From positions 4,521-68,520 of the forward strand of contig JAIVJS010000075.1 in assembly GCA_020199905.1 (NCBI GenBank): a stretch of 64,000 nucleotides of DNA, in the 5' to 3' direction. Under the pieces are notes generated by a model. The model saw only the letters and a program-made list of their open reading frames with translations, made no database searches and was not told the origin of the DNA. Source of the stretch: Acidobacteriota bacterium (GTDB lineage Bacteria > Acidobacteriota > Thermoanaerobaculia > UBA5066 > Gp7-AA6). Shown in pieces: positions 20,283-37,279 of this stretch. Both the position numbers and the translations under genes were made by a program. Numbering within the stretch: the stretch's first letter is position 1; every line of letters begins with the position of its first letter.

Positions 20283-20288
20283 GCGACG

Positions 20289-20360
20289 GTTGAGCTTTGA
20301 GCGTCAAACGTTGAGCGTCAAACGGAGGAGAACGAAGTCCCGAGGATAACTGAAAACTCA
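20289..20360. repeat. Heptamer-periodic intergenic element (TTGAGCG/TCAAACG units then AACTGAAAACTCA)
   Basis: GTTGAGCTTTGAGCGTCAAACGTTGAGCGTCAAACGGAGGAG...GATAACTGAAAACTCACG, immediately after the BNR paralog stop. Confidence 0.55.
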
Positions 20361-20672
20361 CGACCCTACGGCGCACTCCAGCGCGCGAGAAATCGCGCGT
20401 GCGACGAGTAGCGGATGACCTCGCGCCGGGGGCTCGGCGGGCCCAGCTGCTCCGCGAAGCCCTTGTTGGATAGCTCCGGAAGCCTTTCGAGGTCGGGAGG
20501 GTCGATCCGGATTCCCCGGGGGCCTCGTACGATCTTGCTCCTTCGTTCCTGCATGGGACCTTTCATTCTAGTCCTAAAACGGGCACGGCGTCCCGCGGCT
20601 TGAGACAGGAGGAAGCAAGAGTCGGGCCGCGGATCCAAGCGGCAAAGTTTTTGCTGTTCGCGGCAAAGGGAA

Positions 20673-22568: not shown

Positions 22569-23455
22569 CGATCCGTCGCGTCACCCCTCTTCTCTTCGCG
22601 CTCCTCCTCGGAGCCATCGCCACGCCCGCGATCGGATTTGAGCTACGTGTCTGCGCCGACCCGAACAACCTGCCCTTCTCGAACGACCGGCTCCACGGGT
22701 TCGAGAACAGGATTGCGTCCGTGCTCGCCCGCGAGATGGGAACGACCGTCCGATACACGTGGTGGGCGCAGCGACGCGGGTTCGTGCGCAACACGCTGAA
22801 GGCGGGCTTGTGCGACGTCGTCCTCGGGGTCCCGGCGGGGCTCGAGTCGGTGCTGGCCACGCGCCCGTATTACCGGTCGACCTACGTCTGGGTGTCGCGG
22901 CGCTCGCGCGAGGCTCCCGTGACGTCCTTCGACGACCCCCGCCTCGCCCGGAAAAAGATCGGCGTCCAGCTCGTCGGCGACGATTATGCGAACACGCCCC
23001 CGGCGCACGCTCTCATGCGACGGGGCCTCATCGGCAACGTGGTCGGGTTCACGCTGTACGGCGACTACTCGAAGCCCAATCCCCCCGCCCGGATTCTCGA
23101 GGCGGTGGCGGCCGGCGAGGTGGACGTCGCGCTCGTCTGGGGGCCACTCGCGGGCTACTTCGCCAGCCGCAGCGGAGGCGCGCTCCGGATCGTACCGGCT
23201 GCGCCGCCGGCCGATCTCCCGGATTTCCCTTTCGCCTTCGACATCGCGATGGGAGTCCGGCGAGGCGACAAGGACTTCAAGACCCGGCTCGATCTCGCGC
23301 TCCTTCGCCGGCGCGCGGAAATCGACCGGATTCTCGATTCGTACGGGGTTCCGCGCGTCAGGACCGCGCCCGCGCCGCGCGCCGACGTGGCAGGGCGGGC
23401 GGCAGGCGCCGACGTGGCGGCGCGGGGGCTCGCGTCCGCGGAGGCCGGGCGATGA
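22566..23455 (+). CDS. xoxJ: MxaJ/XoxJ-like periplasmic solute-binding protein (quinoprotein dehydrogenase-associated SBP family 3)
   Basis: ATG overlaps the xoxF stop (ATGA). Signal peptide MTIRRVTPLLFALLLGAIATPA. LRVCADPNNLPFSN start is typical of MxaJ/XoxJ. ~296 aa. Confidence 0.75.
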
Positions 23456-23967
23456 GAAGCAAACGGGCAGGCCGGCAGCTTCTCGTTTGCGCTGCCCTGG
23501 CGGTCCTGCCGGTCGGGTGCGACAAGCTCTCGAACTCCCTGCACCAGCCGCCCTCCGCGACCGTGCGCACCGACGCGATCGCCGTGTCCGCGCTCGAGCC
23601 CGGCGCGCGGATGCCCGGGATCGTGCACAAGAACCCGCTCGAGGGAAATCCATTCGCCATCTCCGAGGGGCAGCGGCTCTACGACTGGTACAACTGCTCC
23701 GGCTGCCACTTCCGCGGCGGAGGCGGCATCGGTCCGCCCCTGATGGACGAGTTCTGGATCTACGGCGGCAATCCCGCGAACATCTATACGACGATCGTCG
23801 AGGGGCGCCCGAACGGCATGCCCGCTTTCCGGGGAAAGATCCCCGACTATCAGCTCTGGCAGATCGTCGCCTACGTCCAGAGCATGCGCGCCGACAAGCC
23901 GATCGCGTCTCCGCCGGGTCCGCGGGAGGACCACCTGCAGGCCTCGGAAGGCAAGGAGTCGCGGTGA
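23452..23967 (+). CDS. Mono-heme c-type cytochrome (candidate XoxG-like electron acceptor of XoxF)
   Basis: ATG overlaps the xoxJ stop (ATGA). Signal/lipoprotein-like N-terminus MRSKRAGRQLLVCAALAVLPVGC. Single CxxCH (CSGCH) and downstream Met (NGMPAF) as candidate sixth ligand. 171 aa. Confidence 0.7.
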   Translation: MRSKRAGRQLLVCAALAVLPVGCDKLSNSLHQPPSATVRTDAIAVSALEPGARMPGIVHKNPLEGNPFAISEGQRLYDWYNCSGCHFRGGGGIGPPLMDEFWIYGGNPANIYTTIVEGRPNGMPAFRGKIPDYQLWQIVAYVQSMRADKPIASPPGPREDHLQASEGKESR

Positions 23968-24965
23968 GCCGGCGGAGCGGCCTGCCGGCCGCGGCCGCGG
24001 CCCTCCTCTGCGCGGCTCTCTCCGGGTGCCGGGGAATCCAGTCGTCTCTCGACCCCGCCGGCCGCGAGGCCGCGAAGATTTCCGGGCTCTGGTGGCTCTT
24101 CTTCTACGTCTGCACGGCCGTGTTCGTCCTCGTGCTCGCCTTTCTCTTCTACGGGGTCTTCCGGCGGCGTTCGGAAGACGCGCTTGGGGCGCGGGAGCGC
24201 GGCAAGACCTACGTCGCAATCGGCGCGGGCGCGACCGCGGCGATCCTCCTCCTGTTCCTGGTCGTCAGCGTTTCCGCGGGGCGGGAGATCGCGGAGCCCG
24301 CGGGACCCGACGCGCTCAAGGTGCAGGTGATCGGACACCAATGGTGGTGGGAGGTCCGGTATCCAGCGTCCCCCGCGAACCGGACGGTCGTCACCGCGAA
24401 CGAGATCCACGTGCCGGTTGGACGGCCCGTTTTCCTGGAGCTTCTCTCGGGCGACGTGATCCACAGCTTCTGGGCGCCGAACCTCCACGGGAAAAAGGAC
24501 CTCATCCCCGGGCGGATCAACAGCCACGCGTTCACCGCGAAGAAGGCCGGCGTGTTCCGAGGGCAGTGCGCCGAGTTCTGCGGCCTCCAGCATGCCCACA
24601 TGGCCTTCACGATTTTCGCGGAGACGCCGGAGCGCTACTCGGCGTGGTACGAGAAGCAGCTCGCGCCCGCCGCGGAGCCTTCGACCCCGTCGCAGGAGAG
24701 GGGACGGCAGGTCTTCGTCTCCAATTCCTGCGTCTTCTGCCATGCGATCCAGGGCACGCCCGCGTTCGGGCAGGTCGCGCCTGACCTCACGCACGTCGGC
24801 GGGCGCGGGACGCTCGCCGCCGGCAGCGTCGCGAACAATCCGGGAAACCTGGCCGGCTGGATCGCCGACCCGCAGAGCATCAAGCCCGGCAACCACATGC
24901 CGCCGATGCTGATGGCACCCGAAGACCTGCTCGCGGTGACCGACTACCTGGAGAGCTTGAAGTGA
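23964..24965 (+). CDS. ctaC: Cytochrome c oxidase subunit II with fused C-terminal cytochrome c domain (caa3-type)
   Basis: GTG overlaps the upstream stop (GTGA). Two TM helices. CuA site HSFWAPNLHGKKD...CAEFCGLQHAHM. C-terminal CVFCH heme c motif and MPPM. Confidence 0.9.
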   Translation: MSRRSGLPAAAAALLCAALSGCRGIQSSLDPAGREAAKISGLWWLFFYVCTAVFVLVLAFLFYGVFRRRSEDALGARERGKTYVAIGAGATAAILLLFLVVSVSAGREIAEPAGPDALKVQVIGHQWWWEVRYPASPANRTVVTANEIHVPVGRPVFLELLSGDVIHSFWAPNLHGKKDLIPGRINSHAFTAKKAGVFRGQCAEFCGLQHAHMAFTIFAETPERYSAWYEKQLAPAAEPSTPSQERGRQVFVSNSCVFCHAIQGTPAFGQVAPDLTHVGGRGTLAAGSVANNPGNLAGWIADPQSIKPGNHMPPMLMAPEDLLAVTDYLESLK

Positions 24966-26926
24966 AGACGTCCCGGGAGCCCGTCCGGAAGCCGCCCGCG
25001 GCCCCCGAGCCCGCGCCGCTGCCCGCCGCCCTTCCCGAAGCCGAGCTTCCGGCTCACGAGCGCGAAGAGCTGCGCCGCGCCTTCGAGACCCAGCGCGGTT
25101 TCTTCGGCTCCCTGAAGTCCGTCGACCACAAGGTGATCGGGAAGCGCTACGTGATCACCGCGCTCGTCTTCTTTGTCCTGGGCGGCATCGAAGCGATGAC
25201 GATGCGGCTGCAGCTCGCAAAGCCCGAAAACAGCCTTCTGGGCCCGGACCTGTACAACCAGGTCTTCACGATGCACGGCACGACGATGATGTTTCTGTTT
25301 GCCGTGCCGGTGATGGAAGGGCTCGCCGTCTACTTCGTCCCGCTCATGGTGGGCACCAGGAACGTCGCGTTCCCGAAGCTGAACGCCTTCGGGTACTGGA
25401 TCTATGTCCTCGGCGGCGCGTTCGTCTACGGCGGGTTCTTCTTAAACCGCGGCAACGACACGGGCTGGTTCTCCTACGTCCCGCTCTCCGGCCCGCAGTA
25501 CGCGCCGTCTCATCGCGTCGACATCTGGGCGAACATGATCACCTTCACGGAGGTGTCCGCGCTCGCGGTGGCGATCGAGATCATCGTCACGGCGTTCAAA
25601 CAGCGGGCGCCCGGCATGTCGCTGAATCGCATCCCGCTCTTCGTCTGGTCGGTCATAACGACGAATTTCATGGTCATCTTCGCCATGCCGGCCGTCATGC
25701 TCGCGAGCGGGTACCTCGCTCTCGACCGCCTCGTCGGTACCCACTTCTTCAACCCCGCCGAGGGCGGCGACCCGCTCCTGTATCAGCACCTCTTCTGGTT
25801 CTTCGGCCATCCCGAGGTCTACATCATTTTCATCCCCGCGCTCGGGATGGTCTCGACGATCCTGGCCGCCTCGACGAAGCGCCCGATCTTCGGCTACACC
25901 GCGCTCGTGCTCTCGGTGGTGGCGACGGCGTTCCTGGGCTTCGGCCTGTGGGTTCACCACATGTTCGCGACCGGGCTGCCGCAGCTCGGCGAGAGCTTCT
26001 TCACGGTGGCCAGCATGATGATCGCGATACCGAGCGGGGTGCAGATCTTCTGCTGGATACGATCGCTCTGGGGAAGCCGGCCGCGCATGACGACCCCGTT
26101 CCTGTTCGTGCTCGGCTTCTTCTTCATCTTCATCGCGGGAGGGATGACAGGGGTGATGCTCGCCTCCGTTCCCTTCAACCTCCAGGTGCACGACACGTTT
26201 TTCGTGGTGGCGCACTTCCACTACGTGCTGATCGGCGGCGCGGTCTTCCCGCTCTTTGGCGCGCTCACGTTCTGGTTTCCGAAGCTCACCGGCCGGCTGC
26301 TTTCGGAGACTCTCGGCCGCTGGACGTTTGCGGTGATGTTCGTCGGATTCAACCTAACGTTCGGCCCGATGCACTGGCTTGGCTTCCGCGGGATGCCGCG
26401 ACGCGTCTACACGTACCTGCCCGAGATGGGGTGGGGACCCGCTAATCTCGCGGCGACCATCGGGGCGGGAATGCTCGGAGTCGGCGTGCTCCTCTTCCTG
26501 ATCAACGCGGCCCGGAGCCTCCGGAGCGGCGAGGCGGCCGGCAACAATCCGTGGGGCGCGAGCACGCTCGAATGGGCGACGAGCTCGCCTCCGCCGCCCT
26601 ACAATTTCGAGCGGATCCTGGTTGTCTCGAACCGCGACCCGCTCTGGAAGCCGGAGGAGATGGCCGTTGTCACCGGGATGCGGACGGACCGCCGCGAGGT
26701 TTTGACGACCCGGCCGCTCGATGCGGAGCCGGACCACCGCGCCGTGCTCGTCGGCCCCTCGATCTGGCCGCTCTTCCTCGCGTTCGCCCTGGCGGTCGGC
26801 CTCGTAGGCTCGGTCTTCACCCCCTGGGCAATCCTCCTCAGCGGGTTCCTGTTCTTAGTCGCGATGATCGGGTGGTACTGGCCCAAGGGAGAGCCCTCCG
26901 GCCACAACGCGAGGACGGCGTCATGA
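24962..26926 (+). CDS. ctaD: Cytochrome c oxidase subunit I (heme-copper oxidase catalytic subunit)
   Basis: 654 aa. GTG overlaps the ctaC stop. 12+ TM helices. Canonical WFFGHPEVY with CuB His and Tyr. HHMF. Heme a ligands. Confidence 0.95.
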   Translation: MKTSREPVRKPPAAPEPAPLPAALPEAELPAHEREELRRAFETQRGFFGSLKSVDHKVIGKRYVITALVFFVLGGIEAMTMRLQLAKPENSLLGPDLYNQVFTMHGTTMMFLFAVPVMEGLAVYFVPLMVGTRNVAFPKLNAFGYWIYVLGGAFVYGGFFLNRGNDTGWFSYVPLSGPQYAPSHRVDIWANMITFTEVSALAVAIEIIVTAFKQRAPGMSLNRIPLFVWSVITTNFMVIFAMPAVMLASGYLALDRLVGTHFFNPAEGGDPLLYQHLFWFFGHPEVYIIFIPALGMVSTILAASTKRPIFGYTALVLSVVATAFLGFGLWVHHMFATGLPQLGESFFTVASMMIAIPSGVQIFCWIRSLWGSRPRMTTPFLFVLGFFFIFIAGGMTGVMLASVPFNLQVHDTFFVVAHFHYVLIGGAVFPLFGALTFWFPKLTGRLLSETLGRWTFAVMFVGFNLTFGPMHWLGFRGMPRRVYTYLPEMGWGPANLAATIGAGMLGVGVLLFLINAARSLRSGEAAGNNPWGASTLEWATSSPPPPYNFERILVVSNRDPLWKPEEMAVVTGMRTDRREVLTTRPLDAEPDHRAVLVGPSIWPLFLAFALAVGLVGSVFTPWAILLSGFLFLVAMIGWYWPKGEPSGHNARTAS

Positions 26927-27540
26927 GCTCGCGCCGAACGGTGGACGTCTCGCGCTTGCCCGATATCACGCTCGACTCGGGCGCGCTCTTCTGGTGGGCG
27001 ACGGCCGGACTCATCGCGATCGAGGCGATGAGCTTCGCGATCATCATCGCCACCTTCATCTACCTGCGAATGACGGTGACGGACTGGCCACCCCCGACGC
27101 TCCCGCCGCCGGACCTCAGGTGGGGAATCGCGGGCCTGGTGGTCCTCGTCATCAGCTGCGTGCCCATCCGCATGGCGGAGAAGATCGCCGGACGGGGCCG
27201 GCCGGAAGAGGACAGGCGCCGGATCGCCGCTCTCATCCGAGTGTTCCTCCTCATCGCGGCGGTCGCCGTCGCGATCCGCCTCCTCGAATTTCCGGGCACG
27301 CACTGCAAGTGGAACAACAGCGCGTACGGCTCGGTCATCTGGACCACGCTCGGCATCCACCTGCTCGAAGCTCTCGCGGGATTCGCCGAGTTCGCCGTCG
27401 TGGCAGCGGTCCTCGTCGGCAGCCACGCCGAAGAGAAACACCTCCTAGACGTGCGCGCCTGCGCGCTTTTCTGGTACTTCATCGTCGCCGTCTGGATCCC
27501 GCTCTTCGGAATGATCTACGTCTTTCCGAGGCTCTCGTGA
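26923..27540 (+). CDS. ctaE: Cytochrome c oxidase subunit III
   Basis: ATG overlaps the ctaD stop (ATGA). ~205 aa, 5 TM. ALFWYFIVAVWIPLFGMIYVF resembles the conserved subunit III C-terminal helix. Confidence 0.8.
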   Translation: MSSRRTVDVSRLPDITLDSGALFWWATAGLIAIEAMSFAIIIATFIYLRMTVTDWPPPTLPPPDLRWGIAGLVVLVISCVPIRMAEKIAGRGRPEEDRRRIAALIRVFLLIAAVAVAIRLLEFPGTHCKWNNSAYGSVIWTTLGIHLLEALAGFAEFAVVAAVLVGSHAEEKHLLDVRACALFWYFIVAVWIPLFGMIYVFPRLS

Positions 27541-27920
27541 CCGAGCGCGCGATCGCCGGCGGCGAAGCTCCTCCCGAAGCGTCGGCGGACCGGAGCCTAT
27601 GGTTCGGCATTGTCGCGCCGCCGCTCGCGTGGGCGGCCAACGAGCTCGCCGGGCTCCTCCTTCCCGACTGGGTCTGCAAGAGCGGCCACCGGTGGGTTCT
27701 CCACGCGATCACCGCGGCCGCTCTCGCGATCGCCGTTCTGGCCGGAGCGATGGCGAGCCGGTCGGCCCGGCCTTCCGAGGAGGACGCCGGCGACCCGGAG
27801 GGCCCGATCGCGAAGCGCCGGCGTTTCATGAGCCAGCTGGCCGTCATGAGCGCGCTCTTCTTCTCGCTCGTGATTGTCGCGGGAGCGGTGCCGGGCGCGA
27901 TCCACCGACCCTGCGACTGA
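27537..27920 (+). CDS. Small 3-TM membrane protein in subunit IV position of the caa3 operon (CtaF-like)
   Basis: GTG overlaps the ctaE stop (GTGA). 127 aa, three hydrophobic helices. Positional inference only. Confidence 0.45.
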   Translation: MTERAIAGGEAPPEASADRSLWFGIVAPPLAWAANELAGLLLPDWVCKSGHRWVLHAITAAALAIAVLAGAMASRSARPSEEDAGDPEGPIAKRRRFMSQLAVMSALFFSLVIVAGAVPGAIHRPCD

Positions 27921-27925
27921 CCCCC

Positions 27926-28970
27926 ATGCGCTCATCGGGCCTCGCGGACCTTCTCGCTGCCGGAGGGTGGACGTTCGATCCGGCCGTCGTCGCGCTTCTC
28001 GCGGCCTCGGGGTTCCTTTACGCGCGCGGGCTGCGTCGCCTCTGGGGCCGGGCGGGCGCGGGGGCGGGCATCTCGGTGCGTCAGGCGGCGGCGTTCGTCG
28101 GCGGCTGGGCTGCGCTCGCGGTCGCGCTCGTCTCGCCTCTGCACGCGGCCGGCGAAATCCTGTTCTCCGCCCACATGGTGCAGCACGAGCTGCTTATGCT
28201 GGTCGCCGCGCCCTTGTGCGTGATGGGACGCCCGCTGTCCGTCTTTCTCTGGGCCTTTCCCGCCGGCGCGCGCGAGGCGATCGGGGAAGCGTCGAGGGCC
28301 CGGGGGATCTCCGCCGCCTGGACGGCCGTCACGCGCCCGCTGCCCGCCTTTCTCCTCCAGAGCCTCACTCTCTGGATCTGGCATCTGCCCGCGCTCTACC
28401 AGGCGTCCCTCCGATCGGATTTCGCGCACGCCCTGCAGCACGGCAGCTTCTTCGCCGCGTCCACGGTCTTCTGGTGGGCGCTCCTTCAGGGACGGTTCGG
28501 CCGGCAGGGCTACGGAGCCGCCGCAATCGCCGTTTTCGCGACAACCCTCGAAGGCGGGGTGCTCGGCGCGCTGATCACGTTTGCCCGCTCGCTCTGGTAC
28601 CCGATCTACGAAGCGCGCACCGCGGCATGGGGGCTCTCTCCGCTCGAAGACCAGCAGCTCGCCGGGATCCTGATGTGGGTGCCGGCCGGCCTTCTCCTGG
28701 TGGGGTTCGGCCTCGCACTTTTCGCCGCCTGGCTCGGCGAGGCGGAACGGCGGGAAGGGCGTCCCGGGAGCGGATGCGAACGTCGGACCGCCGCTCGACA
28801 ACATCGCCTCCCGCGTCTACCTCGCCGGAAACCTGACGAACGAGCCCGCGCACATGATCGCGTGGATCCGCGATCCCCAGCATCTGCACGCGCCGACCGC
28901 CATGCCGAATTCCGGAGTGACGGCGCGGGACGCTAGGGACATCGCTGCGTACCTCTACACGCTCAAATGA
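27926..28970 (+). CDS. ctaG: Caa3-type cytochrome oxidase assembly factor CtaG (CopD-like), with a frameshift into a C-terminal cytochrome-c-like tail lacking CxxCH
   Basis: N-terminus MRSSGLADLLAAGGWTFDPAVVALLAASGFLYARG plus 6-7 TM helices, MVQHELLM and WHLPALYQ motifs typical of CtaG. The frame-2 ORF degenerates into low-complexity sequence after ~28760. The frame-0 continuation, with no start codon, encodes GPPLDNIASRVYLAGNLTNEPAHMIAWIRDPQHLHAPTAMPNSGVTARDARDIAAYLYTLK. This is clearly homologous to the C-terminus of ctaC (GNLAGWIADPQSIKPGNHMPP...AVTDYLESLK). Its stop at 28968-70 overlaps the next ATG. Confidence 0.55.
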
Positions 28971-29371
28971 CGGGGGCTCCCCGGCGTCCCGCGCGAGCGG
29001 CGGCCGCCCTCCTGGCTCTTGCCGCCGCCTGCCGGGCTCCGGCGGACCGGGTCCGCGATATCCGGATCTTCGCCGCTTCCTGGGCGGAGACCGTCCGCAC
29101 CACCGCCGCCGCCCGCGCCGCGGGACAGGTCCCCCGGGTGTTCGCCCGCGACACCTTCCGCGCAGCGGTGGAAGAGCTCGAAGACGCGAGGAAGAAGCTG
29201 GCGAAGCTCGCGAAAAAAAGCCCGGAAGCGGCGGAGGCCTCCCGCGCGGCGGGAAGGGCGGCCGCCGCCGTCCGATCGATCGCGGCCGGGTCCGACTCCT
29301 CGGACGTCTCGGCCGCCTCTGCCGCGCTCGCCGCTGACGCCGCTCTCCTGCGCGGAGGAGCGCGCCCGTGA
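28967..29371 (+). CDS. Hypothetical exported alpha-helical protein (possible lipoprotein)
   Basis: ATG overlaps the upstream stop. Signal MTGAPRRPARAAAALLALAAAC. Ala-rich helical 134 aa. Stop overlaps the Nramp GTG start (GTGA). Confidence 0.4.
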   Translation: MTGAPRRPARAAAALLALAAACRAPADRVRDIRIFAASWAETVRTTAAARAAGQVPRVFARDTFRAAVEELEDARKKLAKLAKKSPEAAEASRAAGRAAAAVRSIAAGSDSSDVSAASAALAADAALLRGGARP

Positions 29372-30591
29372 AAGGAGCGTTGAAGTGGCTCCTCGGCATC
29401 GTCACGAGCATCTGCGGCTTCATCGAGGTCGGCTCGATCTCGACGTCGGCGCAGGCGGGATCCGAGTTCGGCTTCCGGCTTCTCTGGGCGGTCGCGATCG
29501 CGACCGTCTGCCTCGTCTTCCTGGTCGAAATGTCCGGAAGGCTGGCGCTCGTCAGCGGCCACACGCTCGTGTCGGCGGTCCGCGAGCGCTTTGGGTTCCG
29601 GTTCCACGCGGTGCCGCTCTCGGCGGAGATCCTCCTCGACGTTCTCGTTCTCTCTGCGGAGATCGGCGGCGCGTGCGTGGCGCTCCAGCTCCTGACGGGT
29701 GTCTCCTTCCGGTGGTTTGCCCTGCCGGTCGGCCTCGCCGTCTGGGCGCTGCTCTGGTACGGCACGTTTTCGGTCATCGAGAACGGGGTCTCCGCGCTCG
29801 GGCTCGTGACGCTCGCGTTCGTGGTCGCGGCGTGGAAGGGGCATCCGGATCCGGCGGCGCTCCTGGCCGGCCTCGTGCCCTCCGCGCCGCCGGACTCCGG
29901 AAGCCTCCCCCGTTACGGGTTTCTCGCCGTCGGCATCCTCGGCGCCACGATCAGCCCGTACCTGCTCAATTTCTACTCGTCGGGAGCCGTCGAGGAGAAG
30001 TGGAGCGAGAAGGACGTGATGCCGAATCGGCTCGTCGCGGCGTTCGGTATGTCTTTCGGCAGCGTGGTGTCCGCGGGCGTCCTCGTGGTGGCCGCCCTCG
30101 TCCTCGCCCCGCGGGGCATCCACGTCGACCGGTTCGAGCAGGCGGCGCTGATGCTCCTTCCGGCGTTCCGATCGTGGGGCGTTCCTCTCTTCGCCGCGTG
30201 CCTCTTCATCGGCTGCTTCGGCGCGGCGCTCGAGATCGCGTTGAACCTCGCCTACGCGATGGCGCAGGCGTTCGGATGGAACTGGGGCGAGGACCAGCGC
30301 CCCGCGGAAGACGCGCGGTTCTGCGTCGTCTACACCGCTGCGGTTCTCGCCGGCTCCGTCATCATGACGGCGGGCCTTTCTCCCTTGAAGCTCACGCTCT
30401 TTTCGATGGCGCTGACGGTCGTCGTGCTCCCGCTGATCGTCATGCCGTTTCTCGTGCTCTTGAACGACCCGCATTACGTAAAGACTCATCGCAACGGCTG
30501 GATCGGCAATTTCGTCGTGACGTTCGTCCTCCTCCTCGGCTGCCTTCTGGCGGTCGTCGTGATTCCGCTGGAGGTGATCGGTGGCGGATGA
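29368..30591 (+). CDS. NRAMP-family divalent metal cation transporter (MntH-like)
   Basis: 407 aa, 11 TM helices. N-terminal LKWLLGIVTSICGFIEVGSISTSAQAGSEFGFRLLWAV and mid-protein GATISPYLLNFYSSG architecture typical of Nramp/MntH. Family call by overall similarity, no strict DPGN motif. Confidence 0.65.
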   Translation: MKGALKWLLGIVTSICGFIEVGSISTSAQAGSEFGFRLLWAVAIATVCLVFLVEMSGRLALVSGHTLVSAVRERFGFRFHAVPLSAEILLDVLVLSAEIGGACVALQLLTGVSFRWFALPVGLAVWALLWYGTFSVIENGVSALGLVTLAFVVAAWKGHPDPAALLAGLVPSAPPDSGSLPRYGFLAVGILGATISPYLLNFYSSGAVEEKWSEKDVMPNRLVAAFGMSFGSVVSAGVLVVAALVLAPRGIHVDRFEQAALMLLPAFRSWGVPLFAACLFIGCFGAALEIALNLAYAMAQAFGWNWGEDQRPAEDARFCVVYTAAVLAGSVIMTAGLSPLKLTLFSMALTVVVLPLIVMPFLVLLNDPHYVKTHRNGWIGNFVVTFVLLLGCLLAVVVIPLEVIGGG

Positions 30592-30955
30592 GGTGCATCT
30601 CGTCCGCGACATTCTCGACAAGCAGCTCGTCGACCGCGATCGCCGGCTCATGGGCAAAGCGGACGGCATCGTCCTGCGGATGCGCGGCAGTGGTCCTCCG
30701 GAGGTGGTCGCCATCGAAGCCGGGCCGGGCGTCCTGGCGGACCGTCTGCATCCGGGGCTCGGGCGGCGGCTCTGCGCGGCGCTCGAACGTCTCGGGAAAG
30801 ACATCGGGCAGCCTCTGCGAATCCCCTTCGCGAAGATCCTTCATCGGGGCCTGGATCTCCAGATCGACACGGACGCGCGGCGGACGAGCGCTTACGCCGC
30901 GGAACGGTGGCTCAAAGAGCGCCTGGTCCGCCGGTTCCCCGGCTCGGGAGAATGA
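30581..30955 (+). CDS. PRC-barrel domain protein
   Basis: GTG start overlapping the Nramp end by 11 nt. 124 aa, LVRDILDKQLVDRDRRLMGKADGIVLRM matches the PRC-barrel core. Confidence 0.45.
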   Translation: MADEVHLVRDILDKQLVDRDRRLMGKADGIVLRMRGSGPPEVVAIEAGPGVLADRLHPGLGRRLCAALERLGKDIGQPLRIPFAKILHRGLDLQIDTDARRTSAYAAERWLKERLVRRFPGSGE

Positions 30956-30959
30956 GACG

Positions 30960-31277
30960 ATGACCGCCGCCCGCGAAATCCGCCTGGAGCGGCTCGTCGG
31001 CCGCGAAGTGAGAGACCAGACGGGACGGGCGGTCGGGCGGCTCGAGGAAGTGCGGGCGCGCAAGAAGGGGAACGAATGGGTGGTGACCGACTGCCACATC
31101 GGCACGGCGGCGCTCGTGGAACGGCTGGCCGCGCACATCCTGAGATTCGGGACCCACGGATACCGCGCCTCGTGGGACCAGATCGACTGGTCGGACCCGG
31201 AAAAGCTGCGCCTGGCCTGTCCCCTCGAGGACCTGCGGCGGCTGACGAGCCGGGCCGCGCGCTCGCGCCGGAAATGA
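30960..31277 (+). CDS. PRC-barrel domain protein
   Basis: 105 aa. LVGREVRDQTGRAVGRLEEVRARKKGNEWVVTDCHIG PRC-barrel core. Stop overlaps the next gene ATG (ATGA). Confidence 0.5.
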   Translation: MTAAREIRLERLVGREVRDQTGRAVGRLEEVRARKKGNEWVVTDCHIGTAALVERLAAHILRFGTHGYRASWDQIDWSDPEKLRLACPLEDLRRLTSRAARSRRK

Positions 31278-32281
31278 CGCGCCGGAGCTTCTTCCATCGG
31301 CGAAGCCTCATGGTGGGCGCCGTTCTGACGGGTGTCTGCGTCGTCTCCCTCGCGGCAGCGCCGTCCGGCGCGCCGGCCGGTTTCTTTCGCGTGTACGTGA
31401 CGAACGAGCGCTCCGGCGACGTGACCGTGATCGACCCGCGAACGCGCGCGGCGATCCGCAACATCGCAGTCGGGGGCCGCCCGCGCGGGATCGCCGCCTC
31501 ACCCGACGGACGGCGCCTCTACGTGGCGATCGCCGCCAGGAATGGGGCTCCCGCCGGCATCGCGGTCATCGATGCCGCTTCCGGCCGGGTCTCGGGGAGG
31601 CTTCCATCGGGCCCCGATCCCGAGAACGTCGCCGTCACTCCGGACGGGCGGACACTGTGGATCTCCAACGAGGACGCGTCACACGCGTCGGCGGTGGATG
31701 TCAGGATCCGCCGCATTCTCGCGACCGTTCCGACGGGAGAGGAGCCGGAAGGGGTGGCCGTCTCCGCGGATGGGCGATGGGTCGCCGTCACCTCCGAGAG
31801 CGCGAGCGCCATCACGGTGATCGACGCGCGCTCGCGCCGGGCGATTCGGAAGATCCGGACGGACGCGCGGCCTCGGGCCGTGCGCTTCTCTCCCGACGGG
31901 AAGAGGGTCTACGCAACCGCGGAGATCGGGGGAAGCGTCTCCTGGATCGACACGGCCACCTGGACCGTCGGCGCGCGGCTCGTGCTTCCCGGACCGGTCA
32001 AGGCGGTCGGCGTGGCGGTCCCCCCCGACGGCCGGCGCCTCTACGTGACCACCAGCCACGCCAACGGAGTCGCCGTCGTCGATACCGAGTCCTTCTCCGT
32101 GGCGGCCACCATCCCGGTGGGCGGGCGGCCGTGGGGCATCGCGCTCTCGCCCGACGGCCGCACTCTGTTCACCGCGAACGGGACCTCGGGAGACGTCTCG
32201 GTGGTCGATCTCGCCTCCGGCCGCGCGGTGGCGGCCGTTCCCGCGGGCGACGGGCCCTGGGGCGTCGCGGTCGCGCGTTGA
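31274..32281 (+). CDS. Exported YVTN-family beta-propeller repeat protein (Tat signal)
   Basis: Twin-arginine signal MTRRSFFHRRSLMVGAV. Seven ~40-aa repeats of the type SPDGRRLYVA...VIDAASGRV (ASPDGRRLY, VTPDGRTLW, VSADGRWVAV, FSPDGKRVYA, VPPDGRRLYV, LSPDGRTLF). Confidence 0.75.
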   Translation: MTRRSFFHRRSLMVGAVLTGVCVVSLAAAPSGAPAGFFRVYVTNERSGDVTVIDPRTRAAIRNIAVGGRPRGIAASPDGRRLYVAIAARNGAPAGIAVIDAASGRVSGRLPSGPDPENVAVTPDGRTLWISNEDASHASAVDVRIRRILATVPTGEEPEGVAVSADGRWVAVTSESASAITVIDARSRRAIRKIRTDARPRAVRFSPDGKRVYATAEIGGSVSWIDTATWTVGARLVLPGPVKAVGVAVPPDGRRLYVTTSHANGVAVVDTESFSVAATIPVGGRPWGIALSPDGRTLFTANGTSGDVSVVDLASGRAVAAVPAGDGPWGVAVAR

Positions 32282-34527
32282 AAACCGCGGCGCTTCTCGC
32301 CGCGCTTCTCTTCGCGGGTCCGCGCTTCGCGCCCGGGGAGGCGGACGACGTCGCCGTCGCGGGCACCGTCCGCTCCTCGGAGGGGGCGCCGATCGAAGGC
32401 GCGCGCGTCGCTTCGCAGCCGGGCGGGCCGTCCAGCAAGACGACGACGGACGCCTCAGGCAGGTTTCTCCTTCGCGACGCCGGCGGCGCCTCCCTGCGCG
32501 TGGAGGCCGATGGATTCGAGCCCGCCCTCGTGCCGGTGCGCCCGAGCGAAGAGATTTCCGTCTGGCTGCGGCCGATTGGCGTGGCCGCAGCCGTGACCGT
32601 CACCGCTTCCCGCACTCCCCGCGAAGTGCGCGACACGCCCGCGAGCGTCGTTGTGCTGTCGTCCGACGACCTCGCCGTCTCCGCGGCCCCCGCTTCCGAC
32701 GATGCCCTGCGGAGCGTCGCGGGATTCAGCCTCTTTCGCCGGTCGGGCAGCCGCACCTCCAATCCGACCACGCAGGGCGTGTCTCTCCGCGGGACGGGAG
32801 CGAGCGGCGCCTCGCGCGCGGCGGTGCTCGAAGACGGCGTCCCGTTGAACGACCCTTTCGGAGGGTGGGTGTACTGGGGCCGCGTGCCCCTCGCGTCGCT
32901 CGACCGCGCGGAGGTCGTCCGGGGCGGCGCGTCGGAGCTCTATGGAAGTCCGGCGCTCGGAGGGGCGATCCAGCTCGTCCGCCGGGCGCCCGCCGATGCC
33001 CCGGCCCTCAGCGCCGACGTCTTCGCCGGATCGGAGAGGGCGCGGGACGCGGGCCTCTTCGCATCGTACCGGCGGGGCCTTTACGGAGCCGCCCTCGCGG
33101 GCGAGGTGTTTTCGACCGAGGGCTACGTTCCGACGGCGCCGCGGGAGAGAGGACCGGTCGACTCGGGCGCCTCTTCACGCCACGGGACGGCGGACCTGAC
33201 AGTCGAGCGGCGCGAGGCCGGGTCGCGGATCTTTCTTCGCGGGTCTCTCTTTGACGAATCGAGAGTGAACGGAACCGATCTGCAGACCAACGACGTCCGG
33301 CTCTCCGAAGGGACCGCGGGAGCGGAAGGCGTGGCGGGCGCGACCGGCGCCGCGACGTGGACGGTGCGCGCTTACGGCAGCACGCAGCGATTTCACCAGA
33401 CGTTCACCTCGATCGCCGCCGACCGGTCCTCCGAGCGCATCCTGCGGTTCCAGACGGTGCCGGCGGACGCCGTCGGGACGAGCGCCCAGCTGGCGCGCAC
33501 GCTCGGCGATCACCTCCTGGTCGCCGGCGCCGAGGCGCGCCGGGTAAAGGGCGAGAGCCGCGAGGAGGTCCCGGGAACCCCGGCCTCGTTCCTCACGGCG
33601 GGCGGCCGCGAATCGTCCGGCGCCCTGTTCGTCGAGGACGTCTTTCGCGCCGGCTCCGAATGGACGCTCACCGCCGGCGTTCGCTGGGACGCCTGGTCGG
33701 ACGACGACGCGCGGCGCGCCACCTCGGGCGGGACGACGGCCGGGACGGTGACTCGCTTTGGGCGGCGGTCGGAAACCGCGTGGAGCCCCCGGATCTCGGC
33801 TCTGTACCGCGCGAGCGGCGTCTTCTCCGTCGCGGCTTCCAGCTACCGCTCCTTCCGGGCGCCGACCTTGAACGAGCTGTACCGCTCGTTTCGCGTCGGC
33901 AACGTCTCGACCGCGGCCAACGAGGACCTGTCGCCGGAGCGTTCAACCGGCGGCGAGCTCGCGATCGCGGCGGACCTTCCCGGATCGCGCTTCCATGGGC
34001 GCGCCGCGGTTTTCTGGATGGAGATCGATGACGCGATCGGCAATCGCACGCTCACCGTGACTCCGACCGTGATCAACCGGCGCCGGGAGAACCTCGGAAC
34101 GGTCCGGGCCCGCGGAGCCGAGGCCGATGTCCAGGCGCGGTTCTATCCATGGAGCATCCGCGCCGGCTACCTCTATGCGGACTCGAGCGTGCTGTCGGCT
34201 CCCTCGGCCCCGGACCTCGCCGGGCTGCGCATTCCGCAGGTTCCGCGGCACCAGGCCACGCTGCGGGTCGAATACCGGCAGGGCGGCGGGGTCGCCGCGC
34301 TCCAGGCACGCGCCGCGGGCCGCCAATTCGAGGATGACGAGAATCGCCTGCCGTTGCGATCCTTCTGGACGGCCGATCTCTTTTTCTCCCTCGCGTTGTC
34401 CCGGGTGATCGAGCCCTACGTTGCCGTGGAAAACGTATTCGATCGCGACGTCGAGACCGGACGGACGCCCGTGACGACGCTCGGCGCGCCGCGGCAGCTG
34501 CGCATCGGAGTGAGGGTGAGAAGGTAG
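32278..34527 (+). CDS. TonB-dependent outer-membrane receptor with N-terminal carboxypeptidase-regulatory-like domain
   Basis: TTG start overlapping the YVTN stop. Signal LKTAALLAALLFAGPRFAPGEA. CarbD-like VAGTVRSSEGAPIEGARV...ASGRFLL. Plug-domain motifs (AAVLEDGVPLNDPFGGWVYW, AEVVRGGASELYGSPALGGAIQLV). Long beta-barrel with alternating hydrophobic strands to the C-terminus. Confidence 0.8.
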   Translation: MKTAALLAALLFAGPRFAPGEADDVAVAGTVRSSEGAPIEGARVASQPGGPSSKTTTDASGRFLLRDAGGASLRVEADGFEPALVPVRPSEEISVWLRPIGVAAAVTVTASRTPREVRDTPASVVVLSSDDLAVSAAPASDDALRSVAGFSLFRRSGSRTSNPTTQGVSLRGTGASGASRAAVLEDGVPLNDPFGGWVYWGRVPLASLDRAEVVRGGASELYGSPALGGAIQLVRRAPADAPALSADVFAGSERARDAGLFASYRRGLYGAALAGEVFSTEGYVPTAPRERGPVDSGASSRHGTADLTVERREAGSRIFLRGSLFDESRVNGTDLQTNDVRLSEGTAGAEGVAGATGAATWTVRAYGSTQRFHQTFTSIAADRSSERILRFQTVPADAVGTSAQLARTLGDHLLVAGAEARRVKGESREEVPGTPASFLTAGGRESSGALFVEDVFRAGSEWTLTAGVRWDAWSDDDARRATSGGTTAGTVTRFGRRSETAWSPRISALYRASGVFSVAASSYRSFRAPTLNELYRSFRVGNVSTAANEDLSPERSTGGELAIAADLPGSRFHGRAAVFWMEIDDAIGNRTLTVTPTVINRRRENLGTVRARGAEADVQARFYPWSIRAGYLYADSSVLSAPSAPDLAGLRIPQVPRHQATLRVEYRQGGGVAALQARAAGRQFEDDENRLPLRSFWTADLFFSLALSRVIEPYVAVENVFDRDVETGRTPVTTLGAPRQLRIGVRVRR

Positions 34528-34628
34528 CTGTCGGTTCGAAGCGGAAGGGCAGGCGGAACAGTGACGCCCTTCGCCATTCGCCGTTCGCTTCCAGCGCCCG
34601 GCGCCTGCACCTCGACACCGCCTGATCG

Positions 34629-35294
34629 GTGGTTTATCGTCGCCCCGTGAGCGCAACCGTGGTGGAAGGCGTCGAACGGGTCTCGAGCGCCCGCTCCTTC
34701 TGGGCTAGACGGATCTTTTCGTTCTGCGGCATCGTTCCCCTCGCCATCTACGTCGTCTGGCACCTCTTCAACAACATCTACGCGATCAACGGCCGCGCTG
34801 CCTTCGACGCGCGGTTGAAGGAGGCGACCGGCTCGCCGCTCTATGCGCCGGCCATCTGGCTGTTCGTCTATCTCCCGTTCGTCATCCACGCGATCGTGGG
34901 GCTCGTGATCACGTTCAAGTCCCGCCCGAACGCGCTGGCTATGCCCCGGTTCCGCAACTGGAAGTACGTGCTTCAGAGAATTTCGGCCATCGGCGTCCTC
35001 CTGTTCGTCCCCGCGCACGTGTACAAGACGAAGATCGAGCCCTGGCGCGCGGGGTTTGACGTCGACTTCGCCCACATGCAGGAGGGGATGCGCGAGCCGA
35101 TCACATTCGCGGTTTATGCGCTCGGGATGCTGGGAGTCGTCTTCCACCTCGCGAACGGGCTCTGGCTCGCCGGAATCACCTGGGGGATCTTCACCGGCCC
35201 GCGGGGACAGCGCCTCGGCGAGTGGCTGTCGGTCGCATTCGGCATCGCCCTCATGGCGCTCGCATTCGCCGCGATTTTCGCCCTCCGGTGGTAG
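34629..35294 (+). CDS. sdhC: Succinate dehydrogenase/fumarate reductase cytochrome b558 subunit (Bacillus-type SdhC)
   Basis: 221 aa, 5 TM. Colinear similarity to B. subtilis SdhC (SFCGIVPLAIYVVWHLFNN, HAIVGL, RNWKYVLQRISAIGVL, VFHLANGLWLAGITWGIFTGPRGQR). No sdhA/sdhB adjacent. Confidence 0.7.
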   Translation: MVYRRPVSATVVEGVERVSSARSFWARRIFSFCGIVPLAIYVVWHLFNNIYAINGRAAFDARLKEATGSPLYAPAIWLFVYLPFVIHAIVGLVITFKSRPNALAMPRFRNWKYVLQRISAIGVLLFVPAHVYKTKIEPWRAGFDVDFAHMQEGMREPITFAVYALGMLGVVFHLANGLWLAGITWGIFTGPRGQRLGEWLSVAFGIALMALAFAAIFALRW

Positions 35295-35420
35295 CTCCGT
35301 GCCGGCTCTGCCGCTTCCGCCGCCCCGGCATGGATCCTGCTCCTTTCGGACGCCAGTGATCCCGACTTTCCCTCTCTCCGGAAACGGAACGGCCGCGTCG
35401 CACGAGCGGACGGCCCTCTG

Positions 35421-36926
35421 ATGGGCTGGCTCGCCAACATCGCGGGGAGAAAGAGCGACTCGCACACCGGCGAGCGGAACTCGGGCACGCTCGACCCCTT
35501 CCCCGGTCCGGCAACGGGGGCCGAGAGCGCCATCGGGCGCAAGATCGGCAAGTACGACATCGTCTCCAAGATCGGCGCGGGGGGGTTCGGGACGGTCTAC
35601 GAGGCCTTCGACCCGCTCATCCAGCGCAAGGTCGCCATCAAGACGTGCGAGGTCGGCTCGCCCGAAATCCGGGCGAGGACCTTTCAGGAGGCGCAGCTCG
35701 CCGGCCGCCTCCAGCATCCCAACATCACGACCGTCTACGAGTTCGGCGTCGAAGACGACGTGCCGTACATCGTCCAGGAATTTCTTCCGGGCGAAGACCT
35801 CGACCGGCTGATCGCGCGGGGCGAGCCCCTCCTCCTGTCGGACAAGTTGAAGATCCTGGTCGGGGTCGCGATCGGGCTCGAGTACGCGCACAAAGCCGGG
35901 GTGATTCATCGCGACATCAAGCCGGCCAACATCCGCGTGCTCGACGGGCACGCGATCAAGATCATGGACTTCGGGATCGCGAAGGCGCAGAACCAGGAGA
36001 CCGAGATCACCAAGGCGGGGGTCGCGGTCGGTTCGGCGGGCTACATGTCCCCCGAACAGATCTGCGGCGATCCGGTCGACCACCGGACCGACATCTTTTC
36101 CTTCGGGCTCCTCGCCTACGAGCTCCTGACGCGGCAGAAGGCATTTCGCAACGAAAACCTCTTCAAGCTCCTGGAAACGATCGTCAAGGAAGAGCCGCCG
36201 CCGCTCGAAGAACAGGCTCCCGACACGCCGCAGCCGCTGGTGGACATCGTCCGCCGATGCATGCGAAAGGAGCCGGCGGACCGGTTTCAGACCGCGCGGG
36301 AGCTCCGCGATGCCCTCCTCGAAGTGCACGAGCAGATTCCGTCGACACCCCTCTCCGGGGTGCATCCCCTCATGCCGCCCGACGAAACGACGCGGCTCGC
36401 CGCGCTCGGCCGCTTCGAGATCCTCGATTCGGAGCCCGAGCCCGAGTTCGACGACCTCGCCCATCTTGCCGCGCAGATATGCGGCACGCCCATCGCTCTC
36501 GTCACCTTCGTCGACCGCGACCGGCAGTGGTTCAAGGCCCGCGTCGGCGTCGAGGCGACCGAAACGCCCCGCGACCACGCGCTCTGCGCGCATGCGATCC
36601 TGGGCCGGAACCCCCTCGTCCTGCGCGATCTCTCGGCCGACGAACGGTTCGCCCGCAACCCGATGGTCACCGGACCGATGAAGCTGCGGTTCTATGCCGG
36701 GGCGCCCCTCGTCACGACCGACGGTCACGCAATCGGCACGGTCTGCGTGCTCGACCGGGTTCCCCGCGAGCTCTCGGAGGCTCAGCTGGAAGGGCTGCGC
36801 GCGCTCGCGCGGCAGGCGCTTTCGCTTCTGGAGCTCCGCCGCCGGGTTCGCTTCGACCGCGGCCGTTCCGGAGAGGCGCTCGTCCGGGAGGCTTCCGGAA
36901 TCACGGGATCGGAGCGGCGGACGTGA
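35421..36926 (+). CDS. Serine/threonine protein kinase with C-terminal GAF domain
   Basis: Hanks kinase motifs GAGGFGTVYEA, VAIK, HRDIKPANI, DFGIAKA, SPE. C-terminal ~160 aa GAF-like (LAALGRFEILDSEPEPEFDDLAHLAAQICGTPIALVTFVDRDRQWFKAR...GTVCVLDRVPRELSEAQL). Confidence 0.85.
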   Translation: MGWLANIAGRKSDSHTGERNSGTLDPFPGPATGAESAIGRKIGKYDIVSKIGAGGFGTVYEAFDPLIQRKVAIKTCEVGSPEIRARTFQEAQLAGRLQHPNITTVYEFGVEDDVPYIVQEFLPGEDLDRLIARGEPLLLSDKLKILVGVAIGLEYAHKAGVIHRDIKPANIRVLDGHAIKIMDFGIAKAQNQETEITKAGVAVGSAGYMSPEQICGDPVDHRTDIFSFGLLAYELLTRQKAFRNENLFKLLETIVKEEPPPLEEQAPDTPQPLVDIVRRCMRKEPADRFQTARELRDALLEVHEQIPSTPLSGVHPLMPPDETTRLAALGRFEILDSEPEPEFDDLAHLAAQICGTPIALVTFVDRDRQWFKARVGVEATETPRDHALCAHAILGRNPLVLRDLSADERFARNPMVTGPMKLRFYAGAPLVTTDGHAIGTVCVLDRVPRELSEAQLEGLRALARQALSLLELRRRVRFDRGRSGEALVREASGITGSERRT

Positions 36927-37279
36927 GCGGCGAGCCCCGCATCCTGGTGGTGGACGACGACGCCAGCGTCCGGGAAGCGCTCCGCGATCTCCTCTCGGGA
37001 GAAGGGTACGCGGTCGTCACCGCCGACGACGGGCAGGACGCCCTGGATCGCCTCGGCTCGATGGATCCTCCCTGCCTGATCCTCCTCGACCTTCGGATGC
37101 CGCGCATCGACGGATGGGAGTTTCTCGCCCGTCGCGACGGGCCCGGCAAGAAGACGCCCGTCGTCCTGCTGTCGGGAATGGCCTTCATCCGCGACGCTCC
37201 CGGCGTCGCCGACTTCCTGGCCAAGCCGATTCGGCCGGATAAGCTCCTCGACTGCGTCCGGCGATTCTGCAAGCGCTGA
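36923..37279 (+). CDS. Single-domain response regulator (CheY-like receiver)
   Basis: GTG overlaps the kinase stop (GTGA). ILVVDDD, conserved Asp in LILLDLRMP, terminal K in FLAKP. Confidence 0.8.
   Translation: MSGEPRILVVDDDASVREALRDLLSGEGYAVVTADDGQDALDRLGSMDPPCLILLDLRMPRIDGWEFLARRDGPGKKTPVVLLSGMAFIRDAPGVADFLAKPIRPDKLLDCVRRFCKR

Follow-up and report, generated by a model that had tools for sequence, protein, structure and literature searches.

Two lanthanide uptake systems have been characterised in bacteria, namely the lut cluster of Methylorubrum extorquens, which encodes the LutH receptor, the ATP-binding cassette (ABC) importer LutA/E/F, and LutB, and the pedA1A2BC operon of Pseudomonas putida. 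XoxF3 proteins are the most abundant predicted lanthanide enzymes of soils and weathered rock. To our knowledge, there is no experimental knowledge of lanthanide uptake in their hosts, because both characterised systems are proteobacterial and ABC-based. Here, we analysed a stretch of 64,000 nt from an Acidobacteriota bacterium (JAIVJS010000075.1; G+C content of ~68%), hereafter called the window, in which a block of six + strand genes (28967-34527) stands at the 3' end of an operon for a lanthanide-type pyrroloquinoline quinone (PQQ) dehydrogenase and a heme-copper oxidase. The window resembles the lut and ped systems in having a TonB-dependent receptor and a PedA2-family propeller beside such a dehydrogenase; it differs from them in that a cassette of the SLC11 (Nramp) type occupies the place where the inner-membrane importer would be expected, and neither Lut/Ped-type ABC importer genes nor a PedA1-type binding protein or lanmodulin were found among the window genes scanned.

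The gene arrangement itself is not new. Voutsinos et al. (2024, BMC Biol 22:41, PMC10875860, Fig. 5) described xoxF3 clusters of Acidobacteria and Gemmatimonadetes that contain Cox, CtaG, CytC, an NRAMP protein with three small hypothetical proteins around it, a YncE-type propeller, and a TonB receptor, and they proposed that the NRAMP protein may transport lanthanides. As far as the parts of that paper drawn on here go, the gene order is the same as in the window, which is a further example from a Thermoanaerobaculia-like metagenome-assembled genome (MAG); both the arrangement and the lanthanide idea are already published and were rediscovered here. In the same parts of the paper, the NRAMP protein is treated as a divalent-metal transporter and the small proteins are left hypothetical. 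What apparently goes beyond them is that the cassette is an autonomous unit common in cyanobacteria, that its permease is NRMT-like, that the permeases split into two subtypes (ES and DA) which track the linkage to xox and cox genes, and that a lipoprotein and a pair of PRC-barrel proteins accompany the permease.

With somewhat less than even confidence, we propose that the six-gene block is a lanthanide acquisition route for the XoxF-type dehydrogenase. In such a route, a lanthanide chelate would enter through the receptor in the outer membrane, and the propeller would serve in the periplasm. The ES permease, which has Glu and Ser in transmembrane segment 1 (TM1) and Ser in TM6, would then take the cation through the inner membrane, so that the cassette would replace the LutAEF or PedA1BC ABC importer. 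If the ES cassette carries lanthanides, it would add a new transport chemistry to the Nramp superfamily and offer a compact target for the bio-recovery of rare earths.

Two portable modules at the end of a xoxF3 operon

The block consists of two separately portable modules that have been recruited to the 3' end of a xoxF3-xoxJ-xoxG-caa3-ctaG operon. The first module is a cassette of a small lipoprotein (134 aa, 28967-29371), an Nramp-related permease (407 aa, 29368-30591), and two cytoplasmic PRC-barrel proteins, termed A (124 aa, 30581-30955) and B (105 aa, 30960-31277). The second is a pair formed by a YVTN propeller of the PedA2 family (335 aa, 31274-32281) and the TonB-dependent receptor (749 aa, 32278-34527), which travel together at other loci as well. 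The lipoprotein (MCA1582261.1), the permease, both small proteins (A is MCA1582263.1), and the receptor are exact matches to the NCBI proteins MCA1582261-64 and MCA1582266, and a GC content at third codon positions (GC3) of 0.80-0.89 backs the reading frames of the block genes. From the lipoprotein to the receptor, the junctions are a GTGA, in which the GTG start of the permease overlaps the lipoprotein stop, an 11-nt overlap, a 4-nt gap, an ATGA, in which the ATG of the propeller overlaps the stop of B, and a TTGA. These start/stop overlaps, three of them of 4 nt, together with the 4-nt gap indicate translational coupling of the block. No convincing internal terminator was found within the block, and the only promoter-like site lies 3' of the receptor. 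The original prediction had described five genes starting at 29368, with the Nramp transporter and the propeller co-translated with the oxidase assembly factor. All five genes were recovered on the + strand at the positions it gave, by matches to Pfam/NCBIfam models and NCBI proteins, and the coupling extends over every junction up to the receptor, but the unit begins one gene earlier, with the conserved lipoprotein gene.

The distribution of the cassette indicates how independent it is. We found 293 relatives of the permease (one genome per species) and examined 84 related loci with enough sequence, most of which are MAG or metagenome contigs. The best 80 of the 293 relatives, from which the taxonomy was taken, belong mostly to Nostocales and other terrestrial cyanobacteria, and also to Pyrinomonadaceae, other Acidobacteriota, and one Chloroflexia genome. 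Homologues of both the 124-aa and the 105-aa protein occur within a few kb 3' of the permease in all 84 loci, immediately downstream in nearly all of them, and an open reading frame (ORF) for the lipoprotein ends at or overlaps the permease start in 83 of the 84. When all ORFs flanking the permease in 35 diverse loci were clustered, nothing recurred apart from the four cassette genes with their frame shadows. These four genes form an autonomous and widely spread unit, and the two PRC-barrel proteins, to which no obvious role had been assigned before, are obligate partners of the permease rather than bystanders. Whatever the metal, this is an SLC11 relative locked to a lipoprotein and a PRC pair, whose numerous homologues are still ~60% identical to the window permease even in Nostoc.

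The lipoprotein has a signal peptide, a lipobox Cys, and the motifs SWxxT...VPxxF/YA; in the alignment of its family (A7), the Cys and the motifs are conserved, with SWxAT and VPxxYA as the family motifs. Proteins A and B contain neither a signal peptide nor a TM segment, and none of the three small cassette proteins has a Pfam or NCBIfam match over threshold. Protein B reaches 16 bits (E=0.012) against PF05239, for which the gathering threshold is 21.2, protein A has no match, and some homologues and fusions of the small proteins carry a precomputed PF05239 match. A sequence-profile search of the PDB gave chance-level matches only for the 124-aa family and sub-threshold PRC-barrel matches for the 105-aa family (E ~0.06-0.25). 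The structural models are clearer. The AlphaFold2 model of A, which has a helical insertion and a C-terminal helix, reached a predicted local distance difference test (pLDDT) score of 77.5 with 60 homologues, and a natural A-B fusion was modelled as a packed pair of PRC barrels with a pLDDT of 84.9 (82-85 over five models) and a predicted TM-score (pTM) of 0.78, the 105-aa half being modelled from a shallow alignment. In a Foldseek search of the PDB, the top matches were nearly all PRC barrels (MTH1859, CdpB1/CdpB2, reaction-centre H, RimM), with a probability of 1.00 and a TM-score normalised to the target of up to 0.81 for the best of them. The PRC-barrel label of the original prediction thus fails at the Pfam threshold and stands at the level of the fold.

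Protein B is a remote paralogue of A (hhalign of the two families: 94% probability, E=1.4e-7), and natural A-B fusions exist among metagenomic proteins (P0122-P0124 with 174 aa, P0125/P0126 with 262/269 aa). A homologue search with A and B concatenated returned four proteins only and revealed the fusions; its profile version mainly recovered the 124-aa family. The closest structural match of the fusion model is the heterodimer of archaeal CdpB1/CdpB2 (8QZO and 8ONW, deposited under the name Archaeoglobus fulgidus), in which two paralogous PRC-barrel proteins are likewise paired, at ~5-15% sequence identity to the small proteins. CdpB1/CdpB2 have a role in cell division, which is not transporter-related, whereas the PRC pair described here is genetically locked to a permease. 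A and B likely form a cytoplasmic heterodimer, which would probably dock on the permease, with the lipoprotein facing the periplasm. A full-text literature search returned no paper in which PRC-barrel proteins are connected with an Nramp transporter.

Some loci show variations of the cassette. In Nostoc sp. UHCC 0302 (L003:9543-9980), a stand-alone response-regulator receiver gene lies between the permease and the PRC genes. In a 182-aa chimera from a Nostoc sp. (P0230), ~130 N-terminal residues of the permease are fused to the last ~55 residues of the 124-aa PRC protein, apparently through an internal cassette deletion in one strain. A motif like AAATCTCTCTAAGG is found ~83 nt 5' of the lipoprotein gene in cyanobacteria (L070, L051, L056, L060, L046), at a near-fixed distance to the start, and its Nostocales variant, AAATCTTTCGTTAGAGAGATGTACAC, is partly palindromic. 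With up to three mismatches, the motif occurs in 13 of 60 loci, as against ~1 of 60 in shuffles, and it may be a candidate operator of a cassette regulator.

The permease site and its link to the xox-cox genes

The permease belongs to the family PF01566, which it matches over profile positions 1-356 of 357 (E=1.3e-59, 202.6 bits). The name Nramp used in the original prediction is correct in this sense, but it does not extend to the canonical Mn/Fe transporters, since the permease scores 93.5 bits against the MntH model (cut-off 430) and 54.7 bits against TIGR01197 (cut-off 272.5); it is an NRMT-like outlier, and the signature of its site is novel. Its best solved relative is EleNRMT of Eggerthella lenta (7QIA), with 117 bits over the full length, compared with at most 67 bits for MntH-type Nramps and 21.6 bits for the NRAT structure 8ONT. 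The signatures reported for SLC11 transporters are DxxN-A/CxxM with two TM6b His in the canonical type, DxxN-AxxT in the NRAT type, which handles Al3+, and DxxG-TxxA/T in the NRMT type (PMC8806188). In the window permease, the site residues are E20-V-G-S23 in TM1, A193-T-I-S196-P-Y in TM6, and M347 in TM10; M347 is invariant and aligns with Gln379 of EleNRMT, a coordinating residue of helix 10. The likeness to the NRMTs (EleNRMT and the Clostridium protein CabNRMT) lies in the full-length alignment, in the TM3 Glu, which is kept, and in the lack of the TM6 Met and of the two proton-pathway histidines in TM6b. The differences are the signature, which is ExxS-AxxS in the window and DxxA-AxxS in other relatives, the Met in place of the TM10 Gln, and the three conserved partner genes that always accompany the cassette permease and go unmentioned in the SLC11 papers found, as far as the parts drawn on here go.

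Each of the three characterised classes was considered for the permease and rejected. A canonical Mn2+/Fe2+:H+ symporter of the MntH type is contradicted by the missing DxxN and A/CxxM motifs, the missing TM6b His, and the MntH score; the NRMT class by the signature, though the overall sequence is nearest to EleNRMT; and the plant NRAT clade by both its signature and the low 8ONT match. By its signature of ExxS-AxxS plus TM10 Met, the permease belongs to none of these classes. The TM6 Met, which excludes hard cations in canonical Nramps, is Ser in the window permease, a replacement that resembles the Met-to-Thr change of the Al3+-binding NRAT branch. Because that change marks a branch which binds trivalent ions, the SLC11 scaffold appears able to handle such ions. 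Site chemistry by itself, however, does not decide the substrate of the permease.

The permeases split cleanly into two types, which we call DA (D..A/A..S) and ES (E..S/A..S or T). The DA type comprises the proteins of all the cyanobacteria, the Chloroflexia, the Pyrinomonadaceae, and several other Acidobacteriota, whereas the window and its relatives carry the ES type. Every xox-linked permease has ExxS-AxxS/T. Counted by locus and without phylogenetic correction, a PQQ dehydrogenase, oxidase, or CtaG gene stands upstream in 0 of 77 DA loci, whereas the genes xoxF-xoxJ-xoxG-cox-ctaG, or at least ctaG at a contig edge, lie directly upstream in 10 of the 13 ES loci with context (the window, L004, L005, L006, L065, L121, L122, L123, L124, and L125). 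The upstream order is identical in L004, L005, L006, L065, L121, L122, L124, and L125, and the permeases of loci sharing the order are 58-80% identical to that of the window. The linkage of the ES subtype, which brings additional oxygen ligands to the site, to the xox-cox operon is strong and specific. The binding-site signature itself is uncharacterised, and the contrast between the ES and DA types provides a testable handle on specificity.

Two of the remaining ES loci deserve description. The eleventh ES locus, L001, is a deletion remnant of the array, and L002, a second and independent assembly, shows the same junction. In this related metagenomic lineage (L001:9204-9642, L002:1-246), residues 137-261 of the dehydrogenase run straight into the final 17 residues of the CtaG cytochrome c tail, right ahead of the cassette. 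In L126 (8736-12856), the lipoprotein was called as one ORF with an upstream protein of the formate/nitrite-transporter family, and a gene of the 2-hydroxyacid-dehydrogenase family follows the PRC genes, which gives the locus a one-carbon-flavoured context.

The recurrence of the gene order also bears on the idea that the adjacency is meaningless and that a long operon merely happened to receive two mobile modules at its end. Both modules are indeed found independently at other loci, and the array can be deleted with the cassette kept. Nevertheless, chance placement is hardly credible, given that the order recurs across loci whose permeases have diverged as far as stated above, that the genes are joined by 4-nt overlaps, and that the site-signature subtype tracks the linkage.

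Several points weigh against a lanthanide role of the block. A periplasmic enzyme is not strictly dependent on the import of its metal across the inner membrane. Most copies of the cassette belong to cyanobacteria, Pyrinomonadaceae, or the one Chloroflexia genome and have no PQQ dehydrogenase gene nearer than 10 kb, which argues that its ancestral job was not lanthanide-specific. The ES loci L083 and L126 have no xox linkage, and L001 and L002 have lost the xox-cox array, yet their cassette and propeller are intact. The ES/DA correlation comes from few independent lineages, the linked copies forming essentially two groups in a midpoint-rooted tree, and the linked cassette always stands 3' of ctaG, so that linkage to the oxidase is inseparable from linkage to XoxF. 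At the site itself, M347 keeps a possible soft ligand, which would fit Mn2+ or Fe2+ better than a hard trivalent ion. EleNRMT, the closest characterised relative, carries Mg2+ and Mn2+ (PMC8806188), and XoxF3 enzymes are described, in the parts of the survey drawn on here, as lacking biochemical characterisation, that of their lanthanide dependence included (PMC10875860).

The main rival explanation draws on several of the same observations. It holds that the cassette is a general importer of Mg2+/Mn2+ that was placed after ctaG for the non-redox Mg/Mn site of the oxidase or for housekeeping, and that only the propeller and the receptor, if anything, concern the XoxF cofactor. The aa3 oxidases bind Mg/Mn. 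In addition to EleNRMT being the best solved relative, the spread of the cassette without xoxF or any other conserved neighbour, the invariant Met347 at the TM10 ligand position, the location of the linked cassette immediately 3' of ctaG, and its persistence after the xox-cox loss in L001/L002 are all in keeping with such an importer. It accords less well with the absence of the NRMT signature DxxG-TxxA/T and with a distinct ES site subtype that is tied to the xox-cox-linked copies, and Mg2+, being abundant, would rarely need an importer dedicated to one operon. Moreover, an Rfam search for riboswitches or leaders found nothing in 16 cassette loci or in the window from 17000 to 37000, neither an M-box nor a Mn riboswitch. 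We regard a Mg2+/Mn2+ importer as possible, though on balance unlikely.

We return to the lanthanide route, still as a tentative proposal. The earlier suggestion that the block supplies metal to XoxF is supported by the translational coupling to an operon for a lanthanide-type dehydrogenase with the DYD motif, by the association of the ES type with xox genes, and by the TIGR03866 family of the propeller, but these observations do not extend to the identity of the metal. In its most specific form, the proposal would be that the ES permease, the lipoprotein, and the PRC heterodimer together make up a dedicated secondary transporter for trivalent lanthanides in XoxF3 soil bacteria, derived from a DA-type ancestor, with the DA-type cassette common in terrestrial cyanobacteria as its source. 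This combination is speculative and rather unlikely as a whole. If true, it would be the first member of the SLC11 superfamily with obligatory accessory subunits and the inner-membrane lanthanide importer of the abundant XoxF3 Acidobacteria and Gemmatimonadetes of soils, whose cluster of this type has no ABC system of the Lut/Ped kind.

The propeller and the receptor

The fifth gene of the block encodes a periplasmic seven-bladed YVTN beta-propeller of the PedA2 type. It scores 288.7 bits against TIGR03866, just above the cut-off of 287.3, over profile positions 7-309 of 310, and 201 bits against the TIGR02276 repeats, and it is encoded in the operon of a TIGR03075 dehydrogenase and a TIGR03871 binding protein. 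TIGR03866 is the family of PedA2, so that the resemblance to lanthanide-utilisation genes noted in the original prediction is borne out for the propeller. In P. putida, PedA2 is a YVTN propeller within pedA1A2BC, an ABC operon required for lanthanide-dependent growth at low lanthanide concentrations; homologues of each of the four genes are present in M. extorquens. LutB adjoins LutA in the lut cluster, and mutants without LutB grow less well on methanol when La3+ is supplied; from the gene order, LutB would be the PedA2 homologue. At L089, a propeller relative of 42% identity follows a PedA1-like binding protein (TIGR03863), and a PQQ dehydrogenase gene and a XoxJ-like gene lie 7 kb downstream of it. 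Within the ES clade, a propeller gene lies no more than 1.5 kb 3' of the cassette in the window, L001, L004, L005, L006, L124, and L125; it is absent from this position in L065, L121, and L123.

The export signal of the propeller varies. The window protein has a twin-arginine motif, MTRRSFFHRRSLMVGAVLTGVCVVSLAAA (T-R-R-S-F-F), before a hydrophobic region, at the start that overlaps the upstream stop; a sister MAG calls the gene at the same MTRRSFF start, and no other start matched NCBI proteins. The orthologues have a Sec-type signal in L005 and lipoprotein-type signals in L001, L085, and L087. The twin-arginine translocation (Tat) signal predicted earlier is present, but it is not conserved, and we rejected Tat export as a sign of cofactor-loaded export on the ground that the orthologues use other signals.

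The receptor has an N-terminal CarboxypepD_reg domain (PF13620) followed by the plug (PF07715, 71 bits) and the barrel (PF00593, 157 bits) of a TonB-dependent receptor. Orthologues with 46-61% identity lie near the propeller or a xox locus in L001, L005, L006, L085, and L087, in varying layouts. The receptor gene follows that of the propeller in L005 and L087 and diverges from it in L085; in L001 it stands 5' of the cassette and is read from the other strand, and in L006 it diverges from xoxF. The short contigs L085 and L087 carry no cassette genes. This linkage, which survives rearrangement, suggests a joint function of the receptor and the propeller, tied to the xox locus. The L001 receptor gene appears frameshifted, but its contig may have been assembled from long reads and contain indel errors.

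A receptor of this kind could serve other cargoes. One possibility is that the heme-copper oxidase receives Cu or Fe by way of the block: the block lies directly 3' of the copper-insertion factor CtaG, iron chelates are a common cargo of TonB receptors, and among the generic NCBIfam models the receptor scores best with the heme and siderophore subfamilies. These scores are far below the cut-offs, however, at 140.5 bits for heme (TIGR01785, cut-off 316.85) and 132 bits for siderophores (TIGR01783, cut-off 223.5). With 113.8 bits against the B12 model TIGR01779 (cut-off 599.7), the receptor stays below every substrate-specific NCBIfam cut-off, and we rejected it as a siderophore, heme, or B12 receptor; the original prediction had named orthology to siderophore or B12 receptors as evidence against a link to XoxF, and the curated models gave no sign of such orthology. 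The permease also lacks the canonical DxxN-AxxM transition-metal site, the block contains no copper chaperone or iron-uptake genes, and the propeller family is tied to PQQ dehydrogenases, not to oxidases. Nothing points to Cu or Fe, which the original prediction had offered as an alternative, and we consider such a supply very improbable.

Another possibility concerns the PQQ cofactor. In E. coli, the TonB receptor PqqU (YncD) is encoded next to YncE, a seven-bladed YVTN-type periplasmic propeller, and the two genes are divergent neighbours, a layout shared with the receptor and the propeller in L085 and L001. The receptor and the propeller of the block could accordingly be a PqqU/YncE-like pair that scavenges PQQ for a host possibly without PQQ synthesis; this could coexist with either the lanthanide or the Mg2+/Mn2+ reading of the cassette. 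YncD/PqqU is the best PDB match of the receptor (63 bits), the name of TIGR03866 describes the propeller family as PQQ-catabolism-associated, and no gene for PQQ biosynthesis (pqq) turned up among the window genes scanned. In the parts of the XoxF survey drawn on here, PQQ synthesis was possible in only 16 of 38 XoxF genomes (PMC10875860). The resemblance is distant, however, with ~25% identity for each protein and neither equivalog cut-off reached. The receptor scores 66 bits against the PqqU model (cut-off 1200), and its BLASTP alignment with E. coli PqqU (25-28% identity) covers the plug and the C-terminal barrel only, so that of the PQQ-contacting residues considered (Q84, Y99, K274, R304, R365, R536) the region of K274, R304, and R365 is unaligned; the propeller scores 94 bits against the YncE model NF052280 (cut-off 400) and is 25% identical to E. 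coli YncE. On these grounds we rejected both the receptor as a PqqU and the propeller as a YncE. Furthermore, YncE has no shown role in PQQ uptake, yncE is dispensable for it in E. coli according to the literature, and a survey found acidobacterial PqqU in Vicinamibacteria only. Scavenging of PQQ by the pair is improbable.

The upstream operon and its surroundings

A near-identical sister MAG is labelled Thermoanaerobaculia. In the window, codon-position GC picks out a long array of co-directional + strand genes with the block at its end, in the order BNR/sortilin-like protein, PQQ dehydrogenase, XoxJ-like protein, XoxG-like cytochrome, caa3 oxidase subunits II, I, and III, a 127-aa membrane protein, CtaG, and the block. 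The dehydrogenase (20673-22568) scores 652.9 bits against TIGR03075 (cut-off 480), and its sequence ...DLFDYDGVNE... contains the D-Y-D motif, i.e., the extra Asp beside the catalytic Asp that marks lanthanide-type enzymes. It is followed on the same + strand by genes for a XoxJ-like binding protein (22565-23455, TIGR03871), and then, identified by Pfam/NCBIfam matches, a XoxG-like cytochrome c (23452-23967), the oxidase subunits (23964-27540), of which subunit II has a cytochrome c domain, and CtaG (27926-28936). Between oxidase subunit III and CtaG lies the gene of the 127-aa membrane protein (27537-27920, + strand), which is conserved, has no family match, and is probably the equivalent of subunit IV of the oxidase; in the parts of the survey drawn on here, Voutsinos et al. 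saw a likeness between its AlphaFold model and vesicle-transport proteins (PMC10875860).

The CtaG gene of the window (28600-28970) lacks ~240 nt that are present in the 99.8%-identical sister MAG (L127:1-458) and in L004 (7639-8919). The missing stretch encodes the membrane linker and the CxxCH heme motif of the C-terminal cytochrome c domain, and the remainder of that domain (28674-28970) sits in a different frame. The difference is due either to a true deletion or to faulty assembly; the sister contig stops exactly at that point. On the other side of the block, 3' of the receptor and the promoter-like site, the window (34662-36926) encodes an SdhC-like cytochrome b of the b558 type, which stands alone without SdhA/B genes, as well as a GAF-domain Ser/Thr kinase. 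The sister MAG is arranged identically.

The window contains two BNR/sortilin-Vps10-like proteins of ~1000 aa (335-3415 and 17136-20282), the latter directly upstream of xoxF. The one that was scored matches the F510_1955 family in part, with 161 bits against a cut-off of 175. A similar protein is encoded upstream of the propeller/xoxF region at the unrelated locus L089 (4369-7440), which hints at a recurrent association of BNR/sortilin-like proteins with the xoxF region.

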